Positions 34,584 to 45,009 of a DNA stretch of 64,000 nt are shown here, piece by piece (the first letter of the stretch is position 1; every line of letters begins with the position of its first letter). Source of the stretch: Sedimentisphaerales bacterium. Its GTDB lineage: Bacteria > Planctomycetota > Phycisphaerae > Sedimentisphaerales > SM23-30. Both the position numbers and the translations under genes were made by a program. The stretch lies in the NCBI GenBank assembly GCA_963666285.1, contig OY762711.1; one strand, 5' to 3'. The notes beneath the pieces were generated by a model. That model was not told the origin of the DNA and made no database searches. It was given only the letters and a program-made list of their open reading frames with translations.

Positions 34584-34994
34584 TTGCGATATATGGCAAT
34601 AGATTATGGCTTACGCCGAATAGGTTTAGCAATTTGTGATGCAGGCGAGATAATCGTATCGCCTTTATGCCAGATTGATAATCCGACGGAAAATCGTCAA
34701 ATGGCAGTTGATAGTATTATTTCGTTAGTGAGAGAGCATGAAATAGAAGCAATTGTAGTTGGCCTGCCGGTTAATATGGATGGGACAATAGGGGAGCAGG
34801 CCAGGATTTCACGTAATTTTGGTGAAAAACTGGCAGGGCAAACAGGTCTGGACGTACATTTTCAAGACGAAAGGCTTAGCAGTCGTTCCGCAGACAGGCT
34901 TTTGGCCGACAGTGGATTTAGCAGAAAGAGAAAGAAAGCCCGGCGTGATATGCTGGCAGCTTGTGAAATATTAAAAACCTTCCTGGGGCAGTAA
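34584..34994 (+). CDS. ruvX: YqgF/RuvX nuclease (pre-16S rRNA maturation)
   Basis: AIDYGLRRIGLA, VVGLP and DERLSS; TTG start after AGGAGG. Confidence 0.9.
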   Translation: MRYMAIDYGLRRIGLAICDAGEIIVSPLCQIDNPTENRQMAVDSIISLVREHEIEAIVVGLPVNMDGTIGEQARISRNFGEKLAGQTGLDVHFQDERLSSRSADRLLADSGFSRKRKKARRDMLAACEILKTFLGQ

Positions 34995-36112
34995 TGGATA
35001 ATAGTAATTCCAGCAGTATTGAAAAAAAACGTAGGCGACATGATCTTGAAGACTCAAATATGAGTTTCGGTGATCATTTAATGGAATTACGTTCTAGAAT
35101 CATCAAAAGTCTAATTGGTCTTGTTTTAGGCTTTATTGTTTCAATGTTCTTTGCCTGGGATATTATCGAGTTTCTGGCAGCGCCTTTGGTTGCTGCTCTT
35201 GAATTAAATGGCATGTCTACCGATCTGCTTACAACCGGTATTGCTACTCCATTTATCACCTATATGAAAGTTGCATTGATTTCCGGTGTTTTTTTTGCTT
35301 CACCATGGATATTTTGCCAGGTTTGGGGATTCGTTGCTGCCGGATTATATTCACATGAAAAAAGGTATATTAATACATTTGTACCTTTCTCTGCTATTCT
35401 GTTCGTATTGGGCGGATTGTTTTTTGTACTGGTAGTTGCGCCGATTTCGATGAACTTTTTCCTTAACTTTAATAAGGGATTTCAAATTGATCCGGAACCG
35501 AGTGCCTGGCATAAGTTGCTAATGGGAAAGTTGAATGATGAGGCTGAACAGAACCCAGAAGTAAAAGAAAGTAGTACGGAAGTTGATGTCAAGGAGCCAG
35601 AAAAGCAGGCAAATGACAGGATGAAAATAGAACTGGTATGTCCGATACCATATTTGAATGATTATATCAAATTGTCAGCTGATTTACCTTATCATGGTGA
35701 AAAATCAGTAATTGCCTCTAATGATCCTGTTAAGCCAAATACCGAGACCGTTAGTTCTGATACTAAAAAAATACAGAAAGTGGAAAGTGAACAAGCACCT
35801 AAGCGGATGGCTTCAATTGATGTAAGATGTACTATCAACGAATATGTGCATTTCGTTATGTTGTTAGCATTAGCTTTTGGCATATCTTTTCAGATGCCGT
35901 TGGCGGTGTTTCTCTTAGGCAGGTTAAATCTTGTATCACTTGAGACCTTATGTAAAGTTCGTAAGTATGTAGTATTGGGCATAGTTATATTCTCAGCTGT
36001 AATTACTCCGCCGGATGTTGTATCTCAAATTTTAATGAGTATTCCAATGTACTTCCTATATGAACTTGGAATTCTTCTAGTAAGATTCTGGCCCAATAAA
36101 GAAATAGAGTAG
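34994..36112 (+). CDS. tatC: Twin-arginine translocase subunit TatC with long internal insertion
   Basis: MSFGDHLMELRSR, QVWGFVAAGLY.HEK, FQMP, ITPPD and LYELGI. Confidence 0.9.
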   Translation: MDNSNSSSIEKKRRRHDLEDSNMSFGDHLMELRSRIIKSLIGLVLGFIVSMFFAWDIIEFLAAPLVAALELNGMSTDLLTTGIATPFITYMKVALISGVFFASPWIFCQVWGFVAAGLYSHEKRYINTFVPFSAILFVLGGLFFVLVVAPISMNFFLNFNKGFQIDPEPSAWHKLLMGKLNDEAEQNPEVKESSTEVDVKEPEKQANDRMKIELVCPIPYLNDYIKLSADLPYHGEKSVIASNDPVKPNTETVSSDTKKIQKVESEQAPKRMASIDVRCTINEYVHFVMLLALAFGISFQMPLAVFLLGRLNLVSLETLCKVRKYVVLGIVIFSAVITPPDVVSQILMSIPMYFLYELGILLVRFWPNKEIE

Positions 36113-36118
36113 CCACAA

Positions 36119-36952
36119 ATGATTATTAGTGAACTTGTCAAAAAAGCATGTAAAAGACCACTGATAATGGGTATTCTGAATGTTACCCCTGATTCTTTCA
36201 GTGATGGCGGTATGTTTTATGATTCTATCAAGGCTGTAGAGCATGCGAAAGAAATGTTGGAAGATGGGGCTGATATAATTGATATTGGTGGGGAATCAAC
36301 TCGCCCAGGTTCGGAATCTGTTTCTGCTGCTGAGCAGATCAGGCGTATAGTTCCTGTAATAGAATTATTATATTCTGAAACAGGGTGCTGTATTAGTATT
36401 GATACTACCAGAGCAGAAGTTGCTGCCAGGGCCGTTGCTGCCGGCGCATCAATTATTAACGATATCTCAGCGTTAGAGGATGACGCTGAAATGGTTTCTA
36501 CTGTCGGAAGTACTGACAGCTTCGTTATACTTATGCATAAAAAAGGTCGACCTGCTGATATGCAGGATAGCCCGGATTATGGAGATGTAGTTGATGATAT
36601 TTTACAATATCTTTCAGATAGAATCAGTTTCGCTGAAAGCTGTGGTGTAAAAAGAGAGAAAATTATTATTGATCCGGGAATTGGTTTTGGCAAGACCGTT
36701 GAACACAATCTTTCGCTCATCAAAAATATCGGTAGATTTCATGATTTAGGAGTACCCGTTTTGCTTGGAGCCAGCAGGAAATCATTTATCGGGAAAATTC
36801 TTGATATTAATGAGCCGCTTGACAGGGTATATGGCGATTCAGCAGTTACTGCATTTGCATGCCGTGAAGGTGTTAATATTTTCAGGGTCCACGATGTTGA
36901 ATCCTGCAAGCAGGTTATAAAAATGACTACAGCTATAATGCAAAATGAATAA
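36119..36952 (+). CDS. folP: Dihydropteroate synthase
   Basis: MGILNVTPDSFSDGG, DIGGESTRPG, DPGIGFGK, SRKSF and RVHDV. Confidence 0.96.
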   Translation: MIISELVKKACKRPLIMGILNVTPDSFSDGGMFYDSIKAVEHAKEMLEDGADIIDIGGESTRPGSESVSAAEQIRRIVPVIELLYSETGCCISIDTTRAEVAARAVAAGASIINDISALEDDAEMVSTVGSTDSFVILMHKKGRPADMQDSPDYGDVVDDILQYLSDRISFAESCGVKREKIIIDPGIGFGKTVEHNLSLIKNIGRFHDLGVPVLLGASRKSFIGKILDINEPLDRVYGDSAVTAFACREGVNIFRVHDVESCKQVIKMTTAIMQNE

Positions 36953-36964
36953 GGAAAGGTAAAT

Positions 36965-37381
36965 ATGAAAAGCTATCGTAAAGAACTCTGGTTTAATATA
37001 ACCAAAAGGCGTCAATTAATAAATATTACTTCAGAACTGGAACAGTGCCTGGCAGAAAGCGGCATAATGGAAGGCTTGCTTCTTTGTAATGCAATGCATA
37101 TAAGTGCGAGTGTGTTTATTAATGATGATGAGGCCGGTTTGCATCATGATTTTGAAGTGTGGCTCGAGAAACTTGCACCGGAAAAGCCTTATTCTCAGTA
37201 TCAGCATAATGGGTTTGAGGATAATGCAGACGCCCATCTGAAGCGTACTATTATGGGGCGAGAGGTAGTTGTTGCGGTAACAGAAGGCAGGATGGATTTC
37301 GGTCCCTGGGAACAGGTGTTTTACGGTGAATTTGACGGTAAGCGTCAGAAGCGAGTTCTGGTAAAGATTATAGGAGAATAA
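36965..37381 (+). CDS. yjbQ: YjbQ family protein (secondary thiamine-phosphate synthase)
   Basis: [17 protein letters not shown] and [13 protein letters not shown]. Confidence 0.9.
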
Positions 37382-37389
37382 TCCAGGTT

Positions 37390-40098
37390 TTAGTTGCCAG
37401 TTGCTTTCTGATTTTTTCTAGTTTCATTTTTAAGCTCTTTAAAGTTGCTTATCAGATTCTGCATTAGGATTTTAATATTATCCGTTTCGCAATCATATAG
37501 ATTGTTTTCAATATCTCTGGCAACGGAAGACAGTTGGTCTGCACCGATTCCGAAAGCACCGTTTTTAATCTTTTGAATTTCTTTTTCTACTGTATTCAAA
37601 TTGCTTCGGTCTATGGCTTCATTTAGAATGCGGATTTGAAGTTCTACATCTCTTATGAAGTCCTTAACGGTATTTTCCATCAGCGATTCATTATTATCAA
37701 ATAGTTCAATTGCTCTTTCTTTATTCCAGATTTGCATATGATCTGAATTATCGGTATTGAGTGCGGAGCTTTTACTGATTTCCGTAAAAGCGTTTTCCAC
37801 CTGCTGATTATCTTTATTGAGCCATTTTTCCAATACAGCCGCTAATTTAGCTGCTCGTACAGGCTTTTCCATTAGATCGTTCATTCGGCTGTTCAGGCAT
37901 TTATTTTTTAGTTCAGGATCAGCATCGGCAGTTAACGCGATGATTGGTACATTTTTATTGAAATTGTCATAAGATCGTATTAGTTTGGCGGCCATAATCC
38001 CGTCCATTATTGGCATTTGAATATCCATTAAAATCAGGTCATATTTGCCAATTCTCGTCATTTCAACCGCTTCTCTGCCATTTTGTGCCAGGTCTGTTTT
38101 TATCTCCAGTTTATTAAGTTGGTTTATGAGCAGATTTTGGTTAGTTTTGTAATCTTCTACAAGTAGAATTTTATGTTTTGACAATCTGGTTTTACTGTCG
38201 TATATGTTAATTGTTTCAAAATCATTCAATTGTTTCAATCTTGTTGAGTCGCATAATTGAACCGAAATTTCAAAATGAATTACATTTTCAGTGTTTTCAT
38301 TTTTTCGGATTTGTATTTTTGCGTCGAGAAGTTCGGCCAATCTTTTTGTTATCGATGGGATTATACTGTTTGCAAGCGATCCGAAGTTGTGTTCTTTAGT
38401 TGAAAAGGTTGGTATTTCATTGTCATTTATTTTAATTGTTTTACATCCGTTGATACTGAATCTGATTTGAGCGTTTGTTTTGTTCCTGTTCAGTGTAGTT
38501 ATAATAAGTGCTATAGTATCATCTTTTGCATTGTCAATAGCACAGCTTAGCAGGTTAATTATGATTTGCCTTAGCTTGAGTTGGTCTGAAATAATATATT
38601 GCGGGACGCCGTCTGCGATTTCAATTTGAAGATTTAAACCTCTGTTTTCAGCTTTCGGAGTTACCAGATGTCTTACAGTTTCTATCAGCTGGAACAGGTC
38701 GCATGCTTTAAGTGATAATTTTATCTTACCAGACTGTATTTTATAATCTTCAATAATTTCATCGATAGTTTCTAGTAAGAATTCAGATTCATATAATATT
38801 GTATTCAGTTTTTTGGCAGTTTCGTCAGAGTTACTATTCATAATCAGCTCTTCAGTGTAGCCGATTATTGAGCTTAGAGGTGTGCGGGTTTTATATGTTA
38901 TGCTCTCTAACAGCTCATCTTTGCCTTTATTGATTTTTGTAAGATTTTTTATCAGATTTTTGAGTTTGATTCTTTTTTGCTGATTATGGTTCTTTTCTTT
39001 TTCTGATTGTTCCAGCATTTTTACATAGTCACACAGTTTTTGCCCTATATTATTTATAGACTGGACCAGGCTGATGTTATAATTGTCTGTGATATTCCCA
39101 TTATTACTACCCAGATTATGCATGTTTTTTAGTGTGTTTTTGATAGGTATCAAAAAGTATCTATTTGAAATATATACGATAACAAGTGAAGAAAGGGAGC
39201 AGACGATTAGTGTGATGGCTAAGAGGTTTGAATATGAACTTTTGAAATTTTGAGTAAAGGTGTTATTTTTTACAAGAGAGATTCTCCATTTTTGTCCAGG
39301 ATAATCTTTGTATCCCTTCATGATATTAAATGTGCAGTATTTTTTCTGTGGATTTTCACCTTGCGTAGAATATATATATTTACCAGACTCGTTTTCAGTT
39401 AATAGTTTTTTAGAATTATCATCAGGGAAGAATTCCAGTATTTGGTCTGGGTCAGGGTGGTACAGTATCCTCCCTGAGCGGTCAGTGATTATTATATGTG
39501 ATATTACGTCCGGGATATTATTATTAGCATTTTGGAAAATTTCATTAATATCTAGATCTGCAGCAATAACTCCTGATATTCTCCCAGCCTCCGATTTGAT
39601 AGGCATGCATATTGTTATGATTGAAGTATATGCGCCAGGTGTTAGATATACAGGTGATACCGCTATTTTACCGGTTGACGCAAGTTTAAACCAGCTCTTC
39701 TCTTTCCAATCTCCCAGGTAATTATACTTTAGAGAGGTGATTACTTCTCCTTTTGTATCTATCAGGGTTATGTCTGCCAGTGTGGTGTTCTGCTGAATGA
39801 AATTCCTTAATTCGTTTAATTTTAGCTGTGTTGATATTGTGTCTGTTTTTATTGAATATTGTTCTGAAAGATATTTAAGTTCCTGCAGGCAGGTATTGAT
39901 TTCAAAATCTATATCTCTGGCAGTTTCTTCGAGTATATAATTTGTGTGGGCTTTTTCATGATCTTCAACATTAACTAATTCCTGACTGAAGTATATGATG
40001 AATGTTAGCAATGCCGGCATAGTCATTGCTAAGAAAATTAACATTCCAACCCTTAATGATGATTTGTCAAATATTTTATATTTCATATATCTATCCAT
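37390..40098 (-). CDS. Hybrid sensor protein (TM-Cache-TM-HisKA-HATPase-REC-HPt) with degenerate kinase and HPt motifs
   Basis: Cache-like periplasmic region; TYKTRTPL in place of SHExRTP; intact receiver (LLVED, LMDIQMP, ALTA, KP); start set at the ATG overlapping the upstream TAA. Confidence 0.8.
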   Translation of the reverse strand: MDRYMKYKIFDKSSLRVGMLIFLAMTMPALLTFIIYFSQELVNVEDHEKAHTNYILEETARDIDFEINTCLQELKYLSEQYSIKTDTISTQLKLNELRNFIQQNTTLADITLIDTKGEVITSLKYNYLGDWKEKSWFKLASTGKIAVSPVYLTPGAYTSIITICMPIKSEAGRISGVIAADLDINEIFQNANNNIPDVISHIIITDRSGRILYHPDPDQILEFFPDDNSKKLLTENESGKYIYSTQGENPQKKYCTFNIMKGYKDYPGQKWRISLVKNNTFTQNFKSSYSNLLAITLIVCSLSSLVIVYISNRYFLIPIKNTLKNMHNLGSNNGNITDNYNISLVQSINNIGQKLCDYVKMLEQSEKEKNHNQQKRIKLKNLIKNLTKINKGKDELLESITYKTRTPLSSIIGYTEELIMNSNSDETAKKLNTILYESEFLLETIDEIIEDYKIQSGKIKLSLKACDLFQLIETVRHLVTPKAENRGLNLQIEIADGVPQYIISDQLKLRQIIINLLSCAIDNAKDDTIALIITTLNRNKTNAQIRFSINGCKTIKINDNEIPTFSTKEHNFGSLANSIIPSITKRLAELLDAKIQIRKNENTENVIHFEISVQLCDSTRLKQLNDFETINIYDSKTRLSKHKILLVEDYKTNQNLLINQLNKLEIKTDLAQNGREAVEMTRIGKYDLILMDIQMPIMDGIMAAKLIRSYDNFNKNVPIIALTADADPELKNKCLNSRMNDLMEKPVRAAKLAAVLEKWLNKDNQQVENAFTEISKSSALNTDNSDHMQIWNKERAIELFDNNESLMENTVKDFIRDVELQIRILNEAIDRSNLNTVEKEIQKIKNGAFGIGADQLSSVARDIENNLYDCETDNIKILMQNLISNFKELKNETRKNQKATGN

Positions 40099-41213
40099 TA
40101 TTTTGATAAAAGATAATGCCATGTTTTATTAATGATTCTATTTGTTTCCTGGCTTGAAAATTCATAGCCAAATGACTCTCCTTTGTCCAGGGCATGCGAT
40201 GGAGGATATAAGTATTTGTTATTAAGTATAGACGAGTCTGTATGTTTAGCGGCTGCTTTATTAGGGTTTGCGGCAAACAACGTACTGGAAATTTCACTAC
40301 TGATTTTGGGGTCAAGTATATGTTCAATAAAGAGCATGGCGGTGTTTTTTTTGTTAGAGCTTTTGGGAATGCACATATTGTCAATCCATAGACTGTAACC
40401 TTCAGTTGGCAGAATGTAATCGATGTCAGGATTGTTTTCAACCTGCTCAAATATCAGACCGCTATAAGTAGCTGCTGCCCAGATAGATTCATCTTGTATA
40501 CCTTTAATAATGTCAGTTTCTCCCATAATTTTGACATCCATTTTTTTCAGGCTTAGCAGGAGGTCAGCAGCTTCGTTTAGCTCTGTAATATTTTTAGTAT
40601 TTAAATTGTATTTGCGTATTAACAATGGAATTGAAATACACTCTCTTGGATTTTTTATCAGGGCGATATGTCCGGTATATTTCTGGTCAAATAAGACGTT
40701 CCAGTCTGGCGAAGGCGACTCTATATGTTTTTTATTTATTACTAAACCGGTTGTGCCCCATATATATGGAACACTATATTTATTCCCGGGGTCATACTTT
40801 TGGTTAGTGAATTTCTTATCCAGGTTATTGAAATTAGAAATTTCACTTTGATCTATTTCTGCAAGAAGTTTCATCGCGATAAGTTCTTTTACCGATGCTC
40901 CAGTTGCAATGCATACATCTGCCTGGCCAGGTGAAGATATTATTGACGAAAGCAGCTCATCTTCATTTTCAAAATAGTGTACGTTCAGCTTAATACCATA
41001 TTTACTCTCGAACCTGCTTATTGCTTTCTTTGTTATATGATTACCCCATAAATACAGGTTTAATGATTTTGCATATTCTATTTCATTTTTCTTATGTTCT
41101 ATGGCAGCGGTCGTATCTTTGGGGCCGCCTAGCATGGTATATGCGAAGTATACCATAAATGCTAAACATATTATTATTGTCAGTTGAAGAATAATATTGA
41201 TAAAATTTTTCAT
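40098..41213 (-). CDS. PotD/PotF-like polyamine substrate-binding protein (no permease or ATPase adjacent)
   Basis: LNLYLWGNHI, FESKYGIK, YDPGNKYSVPYIWGTTG and PTEGYSLWIDNMCIP; N-terminal TM anchor. Confidence 0.85.
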   Translation of the reverse strand: MKNFINIILQLTIIICLAFMVYFAYTMLGGPKDTTAAIEHKKNEIEYAKSLNLYLWGNHITKKAISRFESKYGIKLNVHYFENEDELLSSIISSPGQADVCIATGASVKELIAMKLLAEIDQSEISNFNNLDKKFTNQKYDPGNKYSVPYIWGTTGLVINKKHIESPSPDWNVLFDQKYTGHIALIKNPRECISIPLLIRKYNLNTKNITELNEAADLLLSLKKMDVKIMGETDIIKGIQDESIWAAATYSGLIFEQVENNPDIDYILPTEGYSLWIDNMCIPKSSNKKNTAMLFIEHILDPKISSEISSTLFAANPNKAAAKHTDSSILNNKYLYPPSHALDKGESFGYEFSSQETNRIINKTWHYLLSK

Positions 41214-41532
41214 TCTTATTATTTTCCTGAACTATTAACCAGAAAACCCAATATCATATTCTTATCATTTGTCTAAAATGTTAATGTAGCAAGTTCTGTA
41301 TAACGCTGAAGATATATTAACAATTCGTCGTATATTGCTTCGACCTTTGCCTCTTATGAAACAATAACTTATGGTTTTTGAAGATAGGAAACCGAAGTGT
41401 GGAGATATAAATGTAAGTATTTCGTATTAAGATAATTAAGGTTAGTCTTGTAGTGATTGGCAGGCTTGGCGAAAAACTCGAGTTGGCGATTTTACCTGTA
41501 TTGCTTTTAGTTATGGGACCGATAATTGTGCT

Positions 41533-41799
41533 TTACTTCTTTTCCGGTACCGGGTCAAAACCGCCTTTGGCGAAAGGGTTGCATCGTATAATTCTTTTTA
41601 TACTAAGCCAAAGTCCCTTTATTGGACCATATTCGATTAAGGCTTCTTTGCAGTATTCACTGCAGGTTGGTACATATTTACATGATGCCGGCAGGTGGGG
41701 AGATATGCCCATTTGGTACAGTTTAACAAAAGCTAACATTAGCTTTAGCAGCAAGCGGGCAGGCAAATGATATTTATTTATTGGGCTGTTTGTTTTCAA
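41533..41799 (-). CDS. yidD: Membrane protein insertion efficiency factor YidD
   Basis: [10 protein letters not shown] and [17 protein letters not shown]. Confidence 0.92.
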
Positions 41800-42166
41800 T
41801 GTTTCTTTTATTCTGTTTTTTTACAATTCTTGGCGTCAGGCTCAATAATGATTTGACATATTTTCCTGTTGCACATGATTGAGTGGGACGAGGGATGATA
41901 ACCCAGTCATACCCTTGTGGAAGACTGTTTCGGCATAATCTGAATGCCTCTCGAAGGCAGCGTTTATAGCGATTTCTGATAACTGCTCCGCCCAGTTTTT
42001 TGCTTACGGATAAGCCTAATCGGCTGATTTTCAGGTTGTTAGGCTTACCATATAGAAGAATATTGCTGTCAGAAATACTGTTGCGGTTTTTGAAAACTTT
42101 GGCAAAGGATTCTGTTTTTTTCATCCTGGCCGAACCAGGGAATTTTAATTGTGTGTTTTTGCTCAT
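41774..42166 (-). CDS. rnpA: Ribonuclease P protein component
   Basis: [28 protein letters not shown]. Confidence 0.92.
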
Positions 42167-42350
42167 ATATAGGCAGTCAATTGACCTGATAAAACTGATA
42201 TTCTTTAGAATTCCTTAACTGTATGCTGCTTAAACGTTTACTGATCTATAATTCTATTTTGGCAGTTGATTTTTGTCAAGAAATCTAATGTCTCAATTTG
42301 AATATTTCTTGACTTTAATTTTGCTATAAAGATAATGCTGATAGATAATT

Positions 42351-42836
42351 ATGAGTAAAAAAACAAAAAATCAGGACCAGCAGCAAAAATTCAGTCCCAG
42401 GATAAAGAATAAGAAAGCATCTTTCAACTATAACCTGCTGGAAAAAATAGAGGCTGGTATCGTACTTGAGGGTACCGAGGTTAAAAGCCTGCGTCTGGGG
42501 CGTGCTAGTCTGGATGAGGCATATTGCCGGATTCGTAATGGTGAGCTTTGGATGTATGGATGTAATATATCACTTTACGAACATGGCAATATTAATAACC
42601 ACGAGCCCGCAAGGCCAAGGAAGCTTCTTCTGCATAAAAGAGAGCTTGATAAAATTGAGGTCAAGGTTAATCAAAAGGGACGTACTATAGTACCAACGCG
42701 GATATACTTTTCTCGAGGATATGCTAAAGTAGAGGTTGCAGTAGCACAAGGTAAATCGGTTGCTGATAAACGTTCTACCATGAAAGATAAGCAGGCTAAG
42801 AAGGATATGGATCGGGCTATGCGAAAATGGCGATAG
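42351..42836 (+). CDS. smpB: SsrA-binding protein
   Basis: NKKASFNY, EAGIVLEGTEVKSLR and RKLLLHKRE. Confidence 0.95.
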   Translation: MSKKTKNQDQQQKFSPRIKNKKASFNYNLLEKIEAGIVLEGTEVKSLRLGRASLDEAYCRIRNGELWMYGCNISLYEHGNINNHEPARPRKLLLHKRELDKIEVKVNQKGRTIVPTRIYFSRGYAKVEVAVAQGKSVADKRSTMKDKQAKKDMDRAMRKWR

Positions 42837-42879
42837 AATAATACATGATATTGATAATTTAGATAAAAGGACATATATA

Positions 42880-45009
42880 ATGACACGACTATTTCTTGTT
42901 ACTCTTTTAACTTTTTGCGGCTCAGTTTTTGGCGTTAACACTTTTTTTGAGAGCCAGAATACAGAGGAGCATTTTAAGAAAGGTAAAGCTAAGGATGTCC
43001 TGGTTGACAGTGAAGGTGTTATTTCACTGGCATACAGCTCAAATATTCTATTAAAATCAGACAATGAGGATTGGGTTGTTAATGATATTGCTTTGGATGC
43101 TTCTGGTAATGCCTTTATAGCTACCAGTGGTGAAGGAAATGTGTATAAGATTTCTAATGATGGCAAAACTGAGAGCATTTGGAGTAAAGAAGACCATTCC
43201 CGGCATATTTTCTCACTGGCAGTTTTGAGCGATGGAAGTCTTGTTGCCGGTACCGGTGGCGAAAAAGCCGGACTTTTCAAATATAATGGCAAAAAATGGA
43301 AACAGATTTGGTCGGATGATGGAGTAACCTATATCTGGGATATCGAATGCAGCAAATCTGACAAACTGTATTTGGCTACCGGTCCGGAAGGAAAGATTTA
43401 TTCTATTGATTCAAATGGCAGTAATGCCAAAGAAATATATAAAGCAAAGGCTAAAAATATTCTTGCATTATCCCTCTCTGAGCAGGGTAAGCTTTATGCT
43501 GGAACAGATACTCATGGACTGGTTTATTGTATTGATCTTGGAACGGGAGTGACTACTGTTGCCTATGATACAGGTCATGAAGAAGTTAGCTCACTGGACC
43601 AGGATTCTGCTGGTAATGTTTATATTGCTACTGCCGACAGTGCTGCTGCCAGGCCGGGAGCAAAGCTGGTTCTTTCACTTGAAAATGATGTGGAAAAGAA
43701 TTCGGAAGAAAAGGGTCAGGAAAACGATTCGCCTGAAGCCAACGAAAAGAATAATCAGCCGCCGGCAACTAAAAAACCTGAACGTCAGAATCCACCCAAT
43801 AAGGGAGGTTCGGGCGGCAAGAAAAACACTGTTTTTATGCTGTCGCCATCTGGATTTGTCGAAAAGATTTTTGTTGCACCTGTAGTGATACACGATATTT
43901 CTCTTGGTGATAATGATAAACTGTACCTTGCAACCGGTATTGAGGGCAAGTTGATATGCCTGGATATTCCTACTCGTGAATCTGTTGTTGTATTTGATAG
44001 CGAAAGCACACATTTGTCGGCTGTTACTTGTTTTAATGGCAGAGTTTATGTTGGTGGTGCGGATAAGGCTTCTGTTTTTACAGTTGAGCCTGACTATGTT
44101 AAACAGGGTGAATTTGAGTCCGATGTGTTCGATGCTTCTCAACCTGCTGCATGGGGACTAATGTACATGCAGGCAGAGCAGACAGATGGGATTGATATGC
44201 AGGTTCGTTCTGGAAATACATCCGATCCTGAAAAGGGCGGTTGGACCGAGTGGAAACAGGCTGAGATCAAGTTGCCTGCTGTTAGTGCTGACGTGCCTGT
44301 TGGAAGGTTTCTTCAGTACAAGTTAGTATTGAATGCTGTAGATGGGGGCAGCCCCAAAGTTTCTGAAGTTAAGGCTTCCTATAGTATTCCAAATCTGAAA
44401 CCGGTGATTGCGAAGTTGGACGTTATGGTTCCGCCGCTTGATCCTAAGACTCCATATGCTGAATTAAAGCAATATCAAATTCGCTGGCAGGCGGCAGATG
44501 TAAATAAAGATGAGTTGGCTTTTGATATTTATATTAAATCTGTTGCCCAGGAGGGTTGGATTAAAATTGCAAAAGAACTGGTTGAAAACCAATATGTATG
44601 GAATACTCTTAATGTGCCGGATGGAATGTATAATATAAAGCTGGTCGCATCAGACTGTATGTCTAATTCAGAGTCTGCAAGTTTGACCGATAGTGAAATA
44701 TCTGAGTTGATTTTAATCGATAATACCGCTCCGGAAGTAAATATATTTGACTTAAAAGCTGAAAATGACATATATAAATCTACAGTGCAGGTTTCTGATA
44801 ATCTTAGTGTTATTGAAAATGTTACATATTCGCTTGATTCAAATCAACTATTTCAGGCGGCCTCACCTGTGGATGGTCTGGCTGACAGTGTAAATGAAAC
44901 TTTCAGTTTTGAAATCAATCCGGAAGAACCTGGTTTGCATTTTGTAACTATAAAAGTAAAAGATATAGCCGGTAATACTCGTATATTATCACAAGAGTTC
45001 AAGAAGTAG
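42880..45009 (+). CDS. Secreted beta-propeller repeat protein with C-terminal Ig/FN3-like domains
   Basis: Signal peptide; repeated [LV]Y[LI]ATG/YAGT blades; VRSGNT..P..GW.EW and IDNTAP. Confidence 0.6.
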   Translation: MTRLFLVTLLTFCGSVFGVNTFFESQNTEEHFKKGKAKDVLVDSEGVISLAYSSNILLKSDNEDWVVNDIALDASGNAFIATSGEGNVYKISNDGKTESIWSKEDHSRHIFSLAVLSDGSLVAGTGGEKAGLFKYNGKKWKQIWSDDGVTYIWDIECSKSDKLYLATGPEGKIYSIDSNGSNAKEIYKAKAKNILALSLSEQGKLYAGTDTHGLVYCIDLGTGVTTVAYDTGHEEVSSLDQDSAGNVYIATADSAAARPGAKLVLSLENDVEKNSEEKGQENDSPEANEKNNQPPATKKPERQNPPNKGGSGGKKNTVFMLSPSGFVEKIFVAPVVIHDISLGDNDKLYLATGIEGKLICLDIPTRESVVVFDSESTHLSAVTCFNGRVYVGGADKASVFTVEPDYVKQGEFESDVFDASQPAAWGLMYMQAEQTDGIDMQVRSGNTSDPEKGGWTEWKQAEIKLPAVSADVPVGRFLQYKLVLNAVDGGSPKVSEVKASYSIPNLKPVIAKLDVMVPPLDPKTPYAELKQYQIRWQAADVNKDELAFDIYIKSVAQEGWIKIAKELVENQYVWNTLNVPDGMYNIKLVASDCMSNSESASLTDSEISELILIDNTAPEVNIFDLKAENDIYKSTVQVSDNLSVIENVTYSLDSNQLFQAASPVDGLADSVNETFSFEINPEEPGLHFVTIKVKDIAGNTRILSQEFKK

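Follow-up and report, generated by a model that had tools for sequence, protein, structure and literature searches.

Solute-binding proteins (SBPs) that feed dCache kinases are already known, as are a PotD-like SBP that feeds the membrane sensor MbaA, and histidine pseudokinases. Among the latter, DivL has Tyr at the His position, and a ChrS variant also belongs to this group. In this study, we analyze two adjacent genes on the minus strand of a 64,000-nucleotide stretch of DNA (the window) from a Sedimentisphaerales bacterium (contig OY762711.1 of assembly GCA_963666285.1). The first gene (40098-41213) encodes P0002, an SBP of the PotD/PotF fold with 371 amino acids (aa) that belongs to a sensor-linked clade. 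The second gene (37390-40098) encodes P0001, a hybrid histidine pseudokinase of 902 aa. A literature search, with most subscription papers and supplements outside its scope, found no paper on a PotD-like SBP coupled with a dCache pseudokinase or on this locus, nor a description of the sensor-linked PotD-like clade. We conclude that the dead kinase has, with little doubt, been kept by selection and tentatively propose that it acts as a RetS-like brake, draining phosphate from other hybrid kinases.

Loss of Kinase Chemistry in P0001

P0001 is composed of a dCache_1 sensor domain between two transmembrane segments, a remodelled HAMP, an S helix and the DHp-CA-REC-HPt architecture of an active unorthodox hybrid HisKA kinase of the BarA/GacS type. 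Pfam matches comprise dCache_1, HisKA (31 bits), HATPase_c (26.4 bits, at the cut-off), a strong Response_reg and an Hpt of 22.5 bits, under its cut-off. Yet the residues that characterize an active hybrid of this type are missing. In the DHp domain (aa 393-457; 38728-38922) the H-box His is replaced by Tyr402 and the acidic residue at +1 by Lys (K403, Glu in active kinases; TY402KTRTP), with Thr406 at H+4 retained. The CA domain (aa 458-615; 38254-38727) has Cys519 for the N-box Asn (NLLSC519AID) and has lost both G1 and G2, the latter with a five-residue deletion, so that neither DxGxG nor GxGLG is left. In the HPt (aa 790-890; 37429-37731) the His has become Gln842 and the H+4 Gly Asn846 (IQ842KIKNG). 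This Gly is needed for docking and is Asn as well in P0003, the second dead protein described below. The receiver (aa 642-760; 37819-38175) is intact, with E648, D649, D692, T723, K745 and P746 all in place.

With a kinase fold but neither acceptor His nor ATP-binding motifs, P0001 classifies as a histidine pseudokinase. A sequence-only reading of this stretch had described altered phosphotransfer motifs, a kinase-dead sensor and an intact receiver, and in each of these respects our analysis agrees with it; it had overlooked the remodelled HAMP (aa 314-360; 39019-39159), the connector of which is shortened as in P0003. Pfam HAMP matches are present in the intact congeners G001 and G003 and absent from P0001 and P0003. 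Measured against 147 intact hybrid cores, the CA domain of P0001 retains 5 of 28 near-invariant non-core positions (8 in P0003, 27 in the intact congener G003), while the hydrophobic core is retained at 27 of 32 positions in P0001 and 28 of 32 in P0003. An AlphaFold2 model of P0001 shows all domains (mean predicted local distance difference test, pLDDT, 74.7; predicted template modelling score, pTM, 0.38), the HAMP connector (331-344) and the lid (555-578) being its low-confidence parts. Its kinase core resembles the GacS and RetS structures, RetS (PDB 6dk7, 7n0e) with a TMt of 0.73-0.81. A genome-wide decay of kinases was ruled out, as the His is retained by each of the 11 further DHp-CA-REC hybrids of this type that the genome encodes.

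Intact Orthologues and the Missing Response Regulator

The SBP is found in all three genomes of the same genus (G001, G002 and G003), the G002 copy lying at a contig end. In G001 and G003 the next gene encodes a dCache-HAMP-HisKA-HATPase-REC-HPt kinase whose H, N, G1, G2, REC and HPt motifs are all canonical. A gene for a single-domain response regulator, 79% identical between the two genomes, comes third. The smpB flank of the window is also present in G003. In the window, the sensor gene ends 8 nt (37382-37389) before the stop of the convergent yjbQ, which leaves neither room for nor a remnant of the regulator gene. A regulator orthologue was not found in the own genome (G000, 97% complete) either, where the best match reaches 41%. 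A relocated regulator was considered and rejected: the best own matches (41, 34 and 34%) are paralogues, since other loci of G001-G003 match them better (45-68%). More widely, regulator orthologues (66-100%) occur on the contigs matched to four of five intact kinases, the fifth being cut at its contig end, and on those of neither dead kinase (23 candidates, 9 matches); for P0003, no regulator was found on the matched contig, to which that search was confined.

Intact kinase orthologues are those of G001 and G003, P0239 (partial), P0243 and P0244, and dead ones are P0001 and P0003. A profile search of 1.84 billion representatives, taken over its best 150 matches, gave P0239, P0243 and P0244 and also the more distant intact P0247, P0257, P0302 and P0321. 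On the SBP side, a profile at E 1e-60 matched 6 of 401 genomes of the order, namely four of this genus, G005 and G101, and in G101 the SBP precedes a dCache-HAMP gene. Relatives carry the label Sedimentisphaerales. We regard the locus not as the undescribed signalling system suggested by the sequence-only reading, but as a derived state of an ordinary phosphorelay, the active three-gene version of which is carried by intact congeners.

A Second Dead Copy and Evidence for Selection

In P0003 (899 aa, 44% identical to P0001), Phe stands in place of the His, the N box is broken and both G1 and G2 are gone; it shares with P0001 the five-residue deletion in G2 and the shortened HAMP connector. P0116, 62% identical to P0002, is its presumed SBP partner. 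Both dead copies are sisters (ultrafast bootstrap, UFBoot, 98-100 in six of seven trees; the REC tree is unresolved), and the kinase chemistry was thus probably lost once, before P0001 and P0003 split. On the stem branches of the pair, lengths are 2.5 for HAMP plus S helix, 1.35 for CA, 0.75 for DHp, 0.49 for HPt and 0.47 for dCache. The claim that the kinase keeps only its receiver holds for P0001 and fails for P0003, where DD2 of the receiver is Asn and the HPt His is retained; because of the former change, the dead clade as a whole does not cleanly conserve its receiver.

The dead state coexists with a maintained open frame in two sister copies, and no stop or frameshift is present in either over 56% divergence. 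When the gene was neutrally simulated to 44% identity, taking all divergence as neutral, a mean of 42.7 stops accumulated and none of 1000 pairs stayed open (2 of 1000 for CA alone). Since neutral drift would have left about 43 stops, P0001 is a selected pseudokinase rather than debris. Close orthologues do retain their H, N and G boxes, as would be expected for a decaying copy, but the decay itself is not seen in the open frames or in the simulation.

Identity between the P0001 and P0003 loci amounts to 62% for the SBP, 48% for dCache, 49% for HAMP, 38% for the S helix, 51% for DHp, 38% for CA, 59% for REC and 44% for HPt, as compared to 50, 34, 54, 66, 82, 63, 58 and 39%, respectively, between G001 and G003. 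Constraint on the sensing parts, REC and HPt therefore equals that in the active copies, and the kinase core is relaxed. The 27 of 32 retained CA core positions nevertheless exceed the neutral mean of 19.6-20.9 (P 0.003-0.015 when identity is matched and 0.08-0.12 when the target is relaxed to 40%), in a test whose alignment favours hydrophobics. DNA of P0003 was not found among the matches listed in metagenome and genome scans, nor in 25 genomes of the family and 401 of the order.

The Binding Protein and Its Predicted Contact With the Sensor

P0002 matches Pfam SBP_bac_8 (E 3.5e-22) but scores only 131 bits on the PotD model PRK09501 (cut-off 582) and 108 on a second curated PotD/PotF model (cut-off 636). 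An N-terminal hydrophobic helix is present and may serve as anchor or signal. P0002 is the sole PotD-like protein found in the genome. No potA (TIGR01187) scores over the cut-off in G000, G001 or G003, and the nearest ATPase comes with its own SBP and permease, which bears out the earlier placement of P0002 outside a pot transporter. Of 160 related SBP loci, 139 have pot genes but no sensor beside them and 4 have pot genes together with a kinase; at 5 the SBP adjoins a sensor without pot genes, and 12 have neither neighbour. The five sensor-only loci (G003, two Omnitrophota, Falkowbacteria and Aenigmarchaeota) each have a dCache_1 gene directly downstream, and both complete ones keep their His.

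In a tree with 24 randomly drawn pot-linked sequences and no NspS sequence, the sensor-linked SBPs form one clade apart from the transport PotDs (SH-like support 0.996). Its members precede dCache sensors in G001, G003, G101, L103, L104, L105 and L122; L108 and L022 fall inside the clade without an adjacent sensor, and P0118, P0119 and P0121 come without genomic context. G005, a true potABCD member, and G015, a weak match (2e-5), were left out. At L108:7002-7751, the sensor-clade SBP is adjoined by an outer-membrane-type gene (Gcw_chp, weak match), and a similar-looking open reading frame lies beside the SBP of an unrelated genome (L199:2822-3622). On a single 3.2-kb contig (L022:2-994 and 1781-2860), an SBP of the sensor clade faces a PotD of the transport clade in convergent orientation. 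In the own genome, G000:C1:1413658-1417756, about 22-26 kb before the window, holds a second apparent binding-protein gene (273 aa), directly after which come the genes for an intact hybrid kinase and for a free HPt.

The name polyamine-binding protein is a family label rather than a finding for this copy. Two of eight pocket positions that are acidic in relatives are acidic in P0002, five in P0116 and four to seven in the other 14 rows. PotD contacts its amine by Glu36, Glu171 and Asp257 (PMC4096761). The last two are kept in P0002 as E191 and D278, and Glu36 is replaced by Asn58. The acidic pocket was eroded on P0002's own branch, and the polyamine proposed by the sequence-only reading is not supported as ligand of this copy; spermidine is doubtful and a small amine plausible.

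A contact between both proteins is nonetheless predicted. Co-folding SBP residues 45-371 with dCache residues 37-290 scored 0.69, a mark that 116 of 157 solved and 2 of 215 mismatched pairs attained, and the best of three controls scored 0.00. At least 89% of the contacts recur between runs, with a partner pLDDT of at least 83. The predicted contact maps to aa 118-137, 148-157 and 221-222 of the dCache_1 domain (aa 41-289; 39232-39978) and rests on clade-specific residues on both sides that are kept in this copy, the kin being not independent. Among the positions in or next to this contact that tell both groups of SBPs apart, position 84, for instance, is Glu in 13 of 13 sensor-clade and Asn in 24 of 24 transport SBPs, and position 114, Glu in 20 of the 24 transport SBPs, is Met in P0002. 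Sequence searches of PDB returned transport SBPs and chemoreceptor/cyclase domains, none of them named as an SBP-sensor complex. The idea that the SBP feeds a Cache sensor is in line with this model, and P0002 is likely to dock on the dCache domain.

Within this domain (aa 134-181; 39556-39699) both dead copies carry Lys, Trp, Tyr and Asp at the positions of R126, W128, Y144 and D173 of PctA; Y121 is not matched. G001, G003 and P0243 have Asn at the D173 position, a replacement that abolishes binding by the amino-acid-binding motif of PctA (PMC8915833). Judging from these residues, the dCache domain of the dead copies may itself bind an amine or amino acid.

Gene Context and Assembly

On the minus strand the SBP gene precedes the sensor gene, and both frames are open. 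The neighbours are housekeeping genes, with yidD, rnpA and smpB upstream and yjbQ, folP and tatC convergent downstream. The stop/start overlap TAATG (40096-40100), from the ATG of which the 902 aa of P0001 are counted, is real sequence. As a sign of translational coupling it is neither conserved nor proof, because the orthologues begin at the position of Met5 (40086), a fitting alternative start, and have SBP-sensor gaps of 16 nt in G003 and 109 nt in G001. Promoter and terminator scans gave results at chance level (19 vs 21.6 and 5 vs 4.1, respectively), and no Rfam match was obtained within 36000-43500. An assembly error was ruled out by short-read contigs of runs X1 and X2, which cover the compared stretches with no differences (possibly representing the source sample itself), and by the second protein that is dead alike.

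Elsewhere in the window, TatC (34994-36112; 372 aa) aligns to its model in two separate segments, which points to about 120 inserted residues, and a 709-aa protein encoded after smpB (42880-45009), 50% identical and syntenic in G003, has no NCBIfam match at 1e-10. Outside the window, G000:C1:3262294-3263199 encodes a 301-aa REC-HPt protein before an HPt-like-REC gene, the matching frame in G001, G002 and G003 being about 995 aa long and including a kinase. The genome may thus contain another hybrid of which only the phospho-acceptor end is left.

Discussion

We propose that the ancestor of this locus was an SBP-fed phosphorelay sensor that lost its kinase chemistry, with its regulator not found here, and kept its frame intact. 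The SBP is predicted to sit over the membrane-distal dCache module. The intact receiver could accept phosphate at D692 from another kinase or HPt, and the DHp, with Thr406 and most of the receiver-docking face, would speed its hydrolysis and may also pair with the DHp of another kinase as in RetS. Candidate targets are the 11 other His-bearing hybrids of this type, or free HPt proteins, in the genome. Such a drain is favoured because the five catalytic residues of the receiver, Thr406 and the docking residues remain, and because of two precedents. The phosphatase activity of CrdS depends on the H+4 residue and survives mutation of the His or Glu+1 (PMC3510030). RetS drains GacS via Asp858 of its REC and Thr428, in addition to core contacts, and blocks autophosphorylation (PMC5992135). 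Taken as a whole, it is possible, although doubtful, that P0001 is a ligand-gated, phosphatase-only receptor, in which a phosphorelay without own regulator and kinase chemistry has been rewired as an inhibitory input on other hybrids while its intact ancestral form persists in sister species. It would belong to a family of PotD-like proteins that spans several phyla, is dedicated to sensors and has a dCache docking motif of its own.

Several points weigh against this proposal. Loss of the His in PleC also removes phosphatase activity, and in PsmA the intact receiver Asp is dispensable (PMC12963549). A receiver sink is not conserved across the only two members, P0003 having Asn at DD2, which makes a pseudo-receiver by the definition of PMC12632262. 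The HPt is probably dead in both copies, so a reverse relay through it falls away. Retention of Thr406, the equivalent of which occurs in 11 of 11 aligned sequences, is weak evidence, since it is among 4 of 18 near-invariant DHp positions kept by both dead copies and adjoins a structural Pro. DHp and CA evolve faster in the dead pair than in the intact one. Ligand gating may be lost in view of the depleted acidic pocket and the remodelled HAMP, and a co-fold pass can mean family likeness instead of binding by this copy. No partner kinase was identified. Finally, a 2-nt insertion at 39386, in the dCache region, is present in a single contig of run X3; it falls in a GANTC site, the contig is chimeric and runs into unrelated DNA at a GATC, and the insertion is probably an artefact of the ligation library.

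A rival reading is a scaffold or receptor that handles no phosphate, similar to PsmA or DivL, in which the SBP-dCache unit would shift the shape of a dead core to which another protein binds. We consider this rather unlikely. In its favour, each copy lost a different remaining phospho-site after the split (the HPt His in P0001, DD2 of REC in P0003) and kept the folds. The alpha4-beta5 loop of REC has a Gly that 8 of 8 intact copies retain and both dead copies have replaced, and the remodelled HAMP is conserved in its new state about as well as in the intact pair (49 vs 54%). PsmA provides the precedent. All five catalytic residues of the receiver and most DHp docking residues are, however, retained in P0001, and no candidate binding partner is encoded nearby.

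Slow erosion is also unlikely, and a little more so. According to this explanation, the regulator was lost, selection is mainly on SBP and dCache (e.g., for tethering the SBP or sequestering the ligand), and the cytoplasmic domains decay piecemeal. The relaxed DHp and CA domains and the eroded SBP pocket agree with it, as do the finding of just two dead members among the best 150 profile matches and the possible frameshift allele in X3. The GC content is also low (33.8%, the 2.6th percentile of 2059 long open reading frames), though the intact hybrids of the genome are likewise low (35-41%). In the case of run X4, seven non-synonymous and five synonymous variant codons in the SBP gene (depth 2) point to erosion, whereas four synonymous and no non-synonymous variants in the sensor gene, all in its N-terminal part, argue against it. 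So do the uninterrupted frames, the CA hydrophobic core above neutral expectation, and REC and HPt, which lie downstream and are as conserved as in the intact pair, unlike a dispensable tail.

That P0002 serves a transporter elsewhere and stands beside the pseudokinase for historical reasons is very improbable: its fold is that of transport SBPs and 143 of the 160 related loci lie by potA/B/C genes, but, as described above, no potA of G000, G001 or G003 scores over the cut-off, the nearest ATPase has partners of its own and members of the separate clade precede dCache sensors. Least credible of all is that P0001 is an atypical kinase still active through Tyr402, which takes the place of the His as it does in DivL, or through another residue, given the Phe of P0003, the lost N box, G1 and G2, and the shortened lid region.

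Comparison With Known Systems

The dead copies number two, and their hosts are uncultured. The phosphate drain we favour is modeled on RetS of Pseudomonas aeruginosa (PMC5992135), like P0001 a membrane hybrid with a degenerate HATPase without G boxes, an H+4 Thr and a receiver with its acceptor Asp. RetS differs by its HExxT motif, including the His, and two REC domains, whereas P0001 has only the Thr, one REC with a dead HPt, and an SBP-fed dCache_1. PsmA of Streptomyces (PMC12963549) is also a hybrid pseudokinase that has neither the His nor ATP-binding motifs but an intact Asp in its REC; yet, it is cytoplasmic, contains PAS, lacks an HPt and the xxT/N motif and is conserved across a family, while P0001, a membrane receptor partnered by an SBP, represents a kind found in two genomes. 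DivL of Caulobacter (bioRxiv 10.1101/812529; PMC12963549) is a pseudokinase that acts on other kinases. It is PAS-based, has no dCache or SBP, and its reverse signalling has been shown.

For the sensing half, NspS-MbaA of Vibrio and Sinorhizobium (PMC9993111) offers the closest arrangement, with a PotD-like SBP gene directly before a HAMP-containing membrane sensor and no transporter. The output of MbaA is GGDEF/EAL, in contrast to the dead hybrid kinase here, where the SBP has also lost most of its acidic pocket residues. LuxP/LuxQ, HptA/HptS and CBP/ChiS (PMC8050422) exemplify the stimulation of a dCache-type kinase by an SBP, the likely ancestral state in G001 and G003, although their SBPs belong to other families and their kinases are active.

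Pseudokinase origins are rarely visible. Here, an active three-gene relay and its dead two-gene derivative occur within one genus, and the loss of the regulator, the burst of change in HAMP, DHp and CA, and the kept sensing interface can therefore be compared directly. In addition, Planctomycetota, Omnitrophota, Patescibacteria and a DPANN archaeon share a clade of PotD-like proteins dedicated to dCache kinases, which carries the principle known from NspS beyond cyclic-di-GMP enzymes to kinases.

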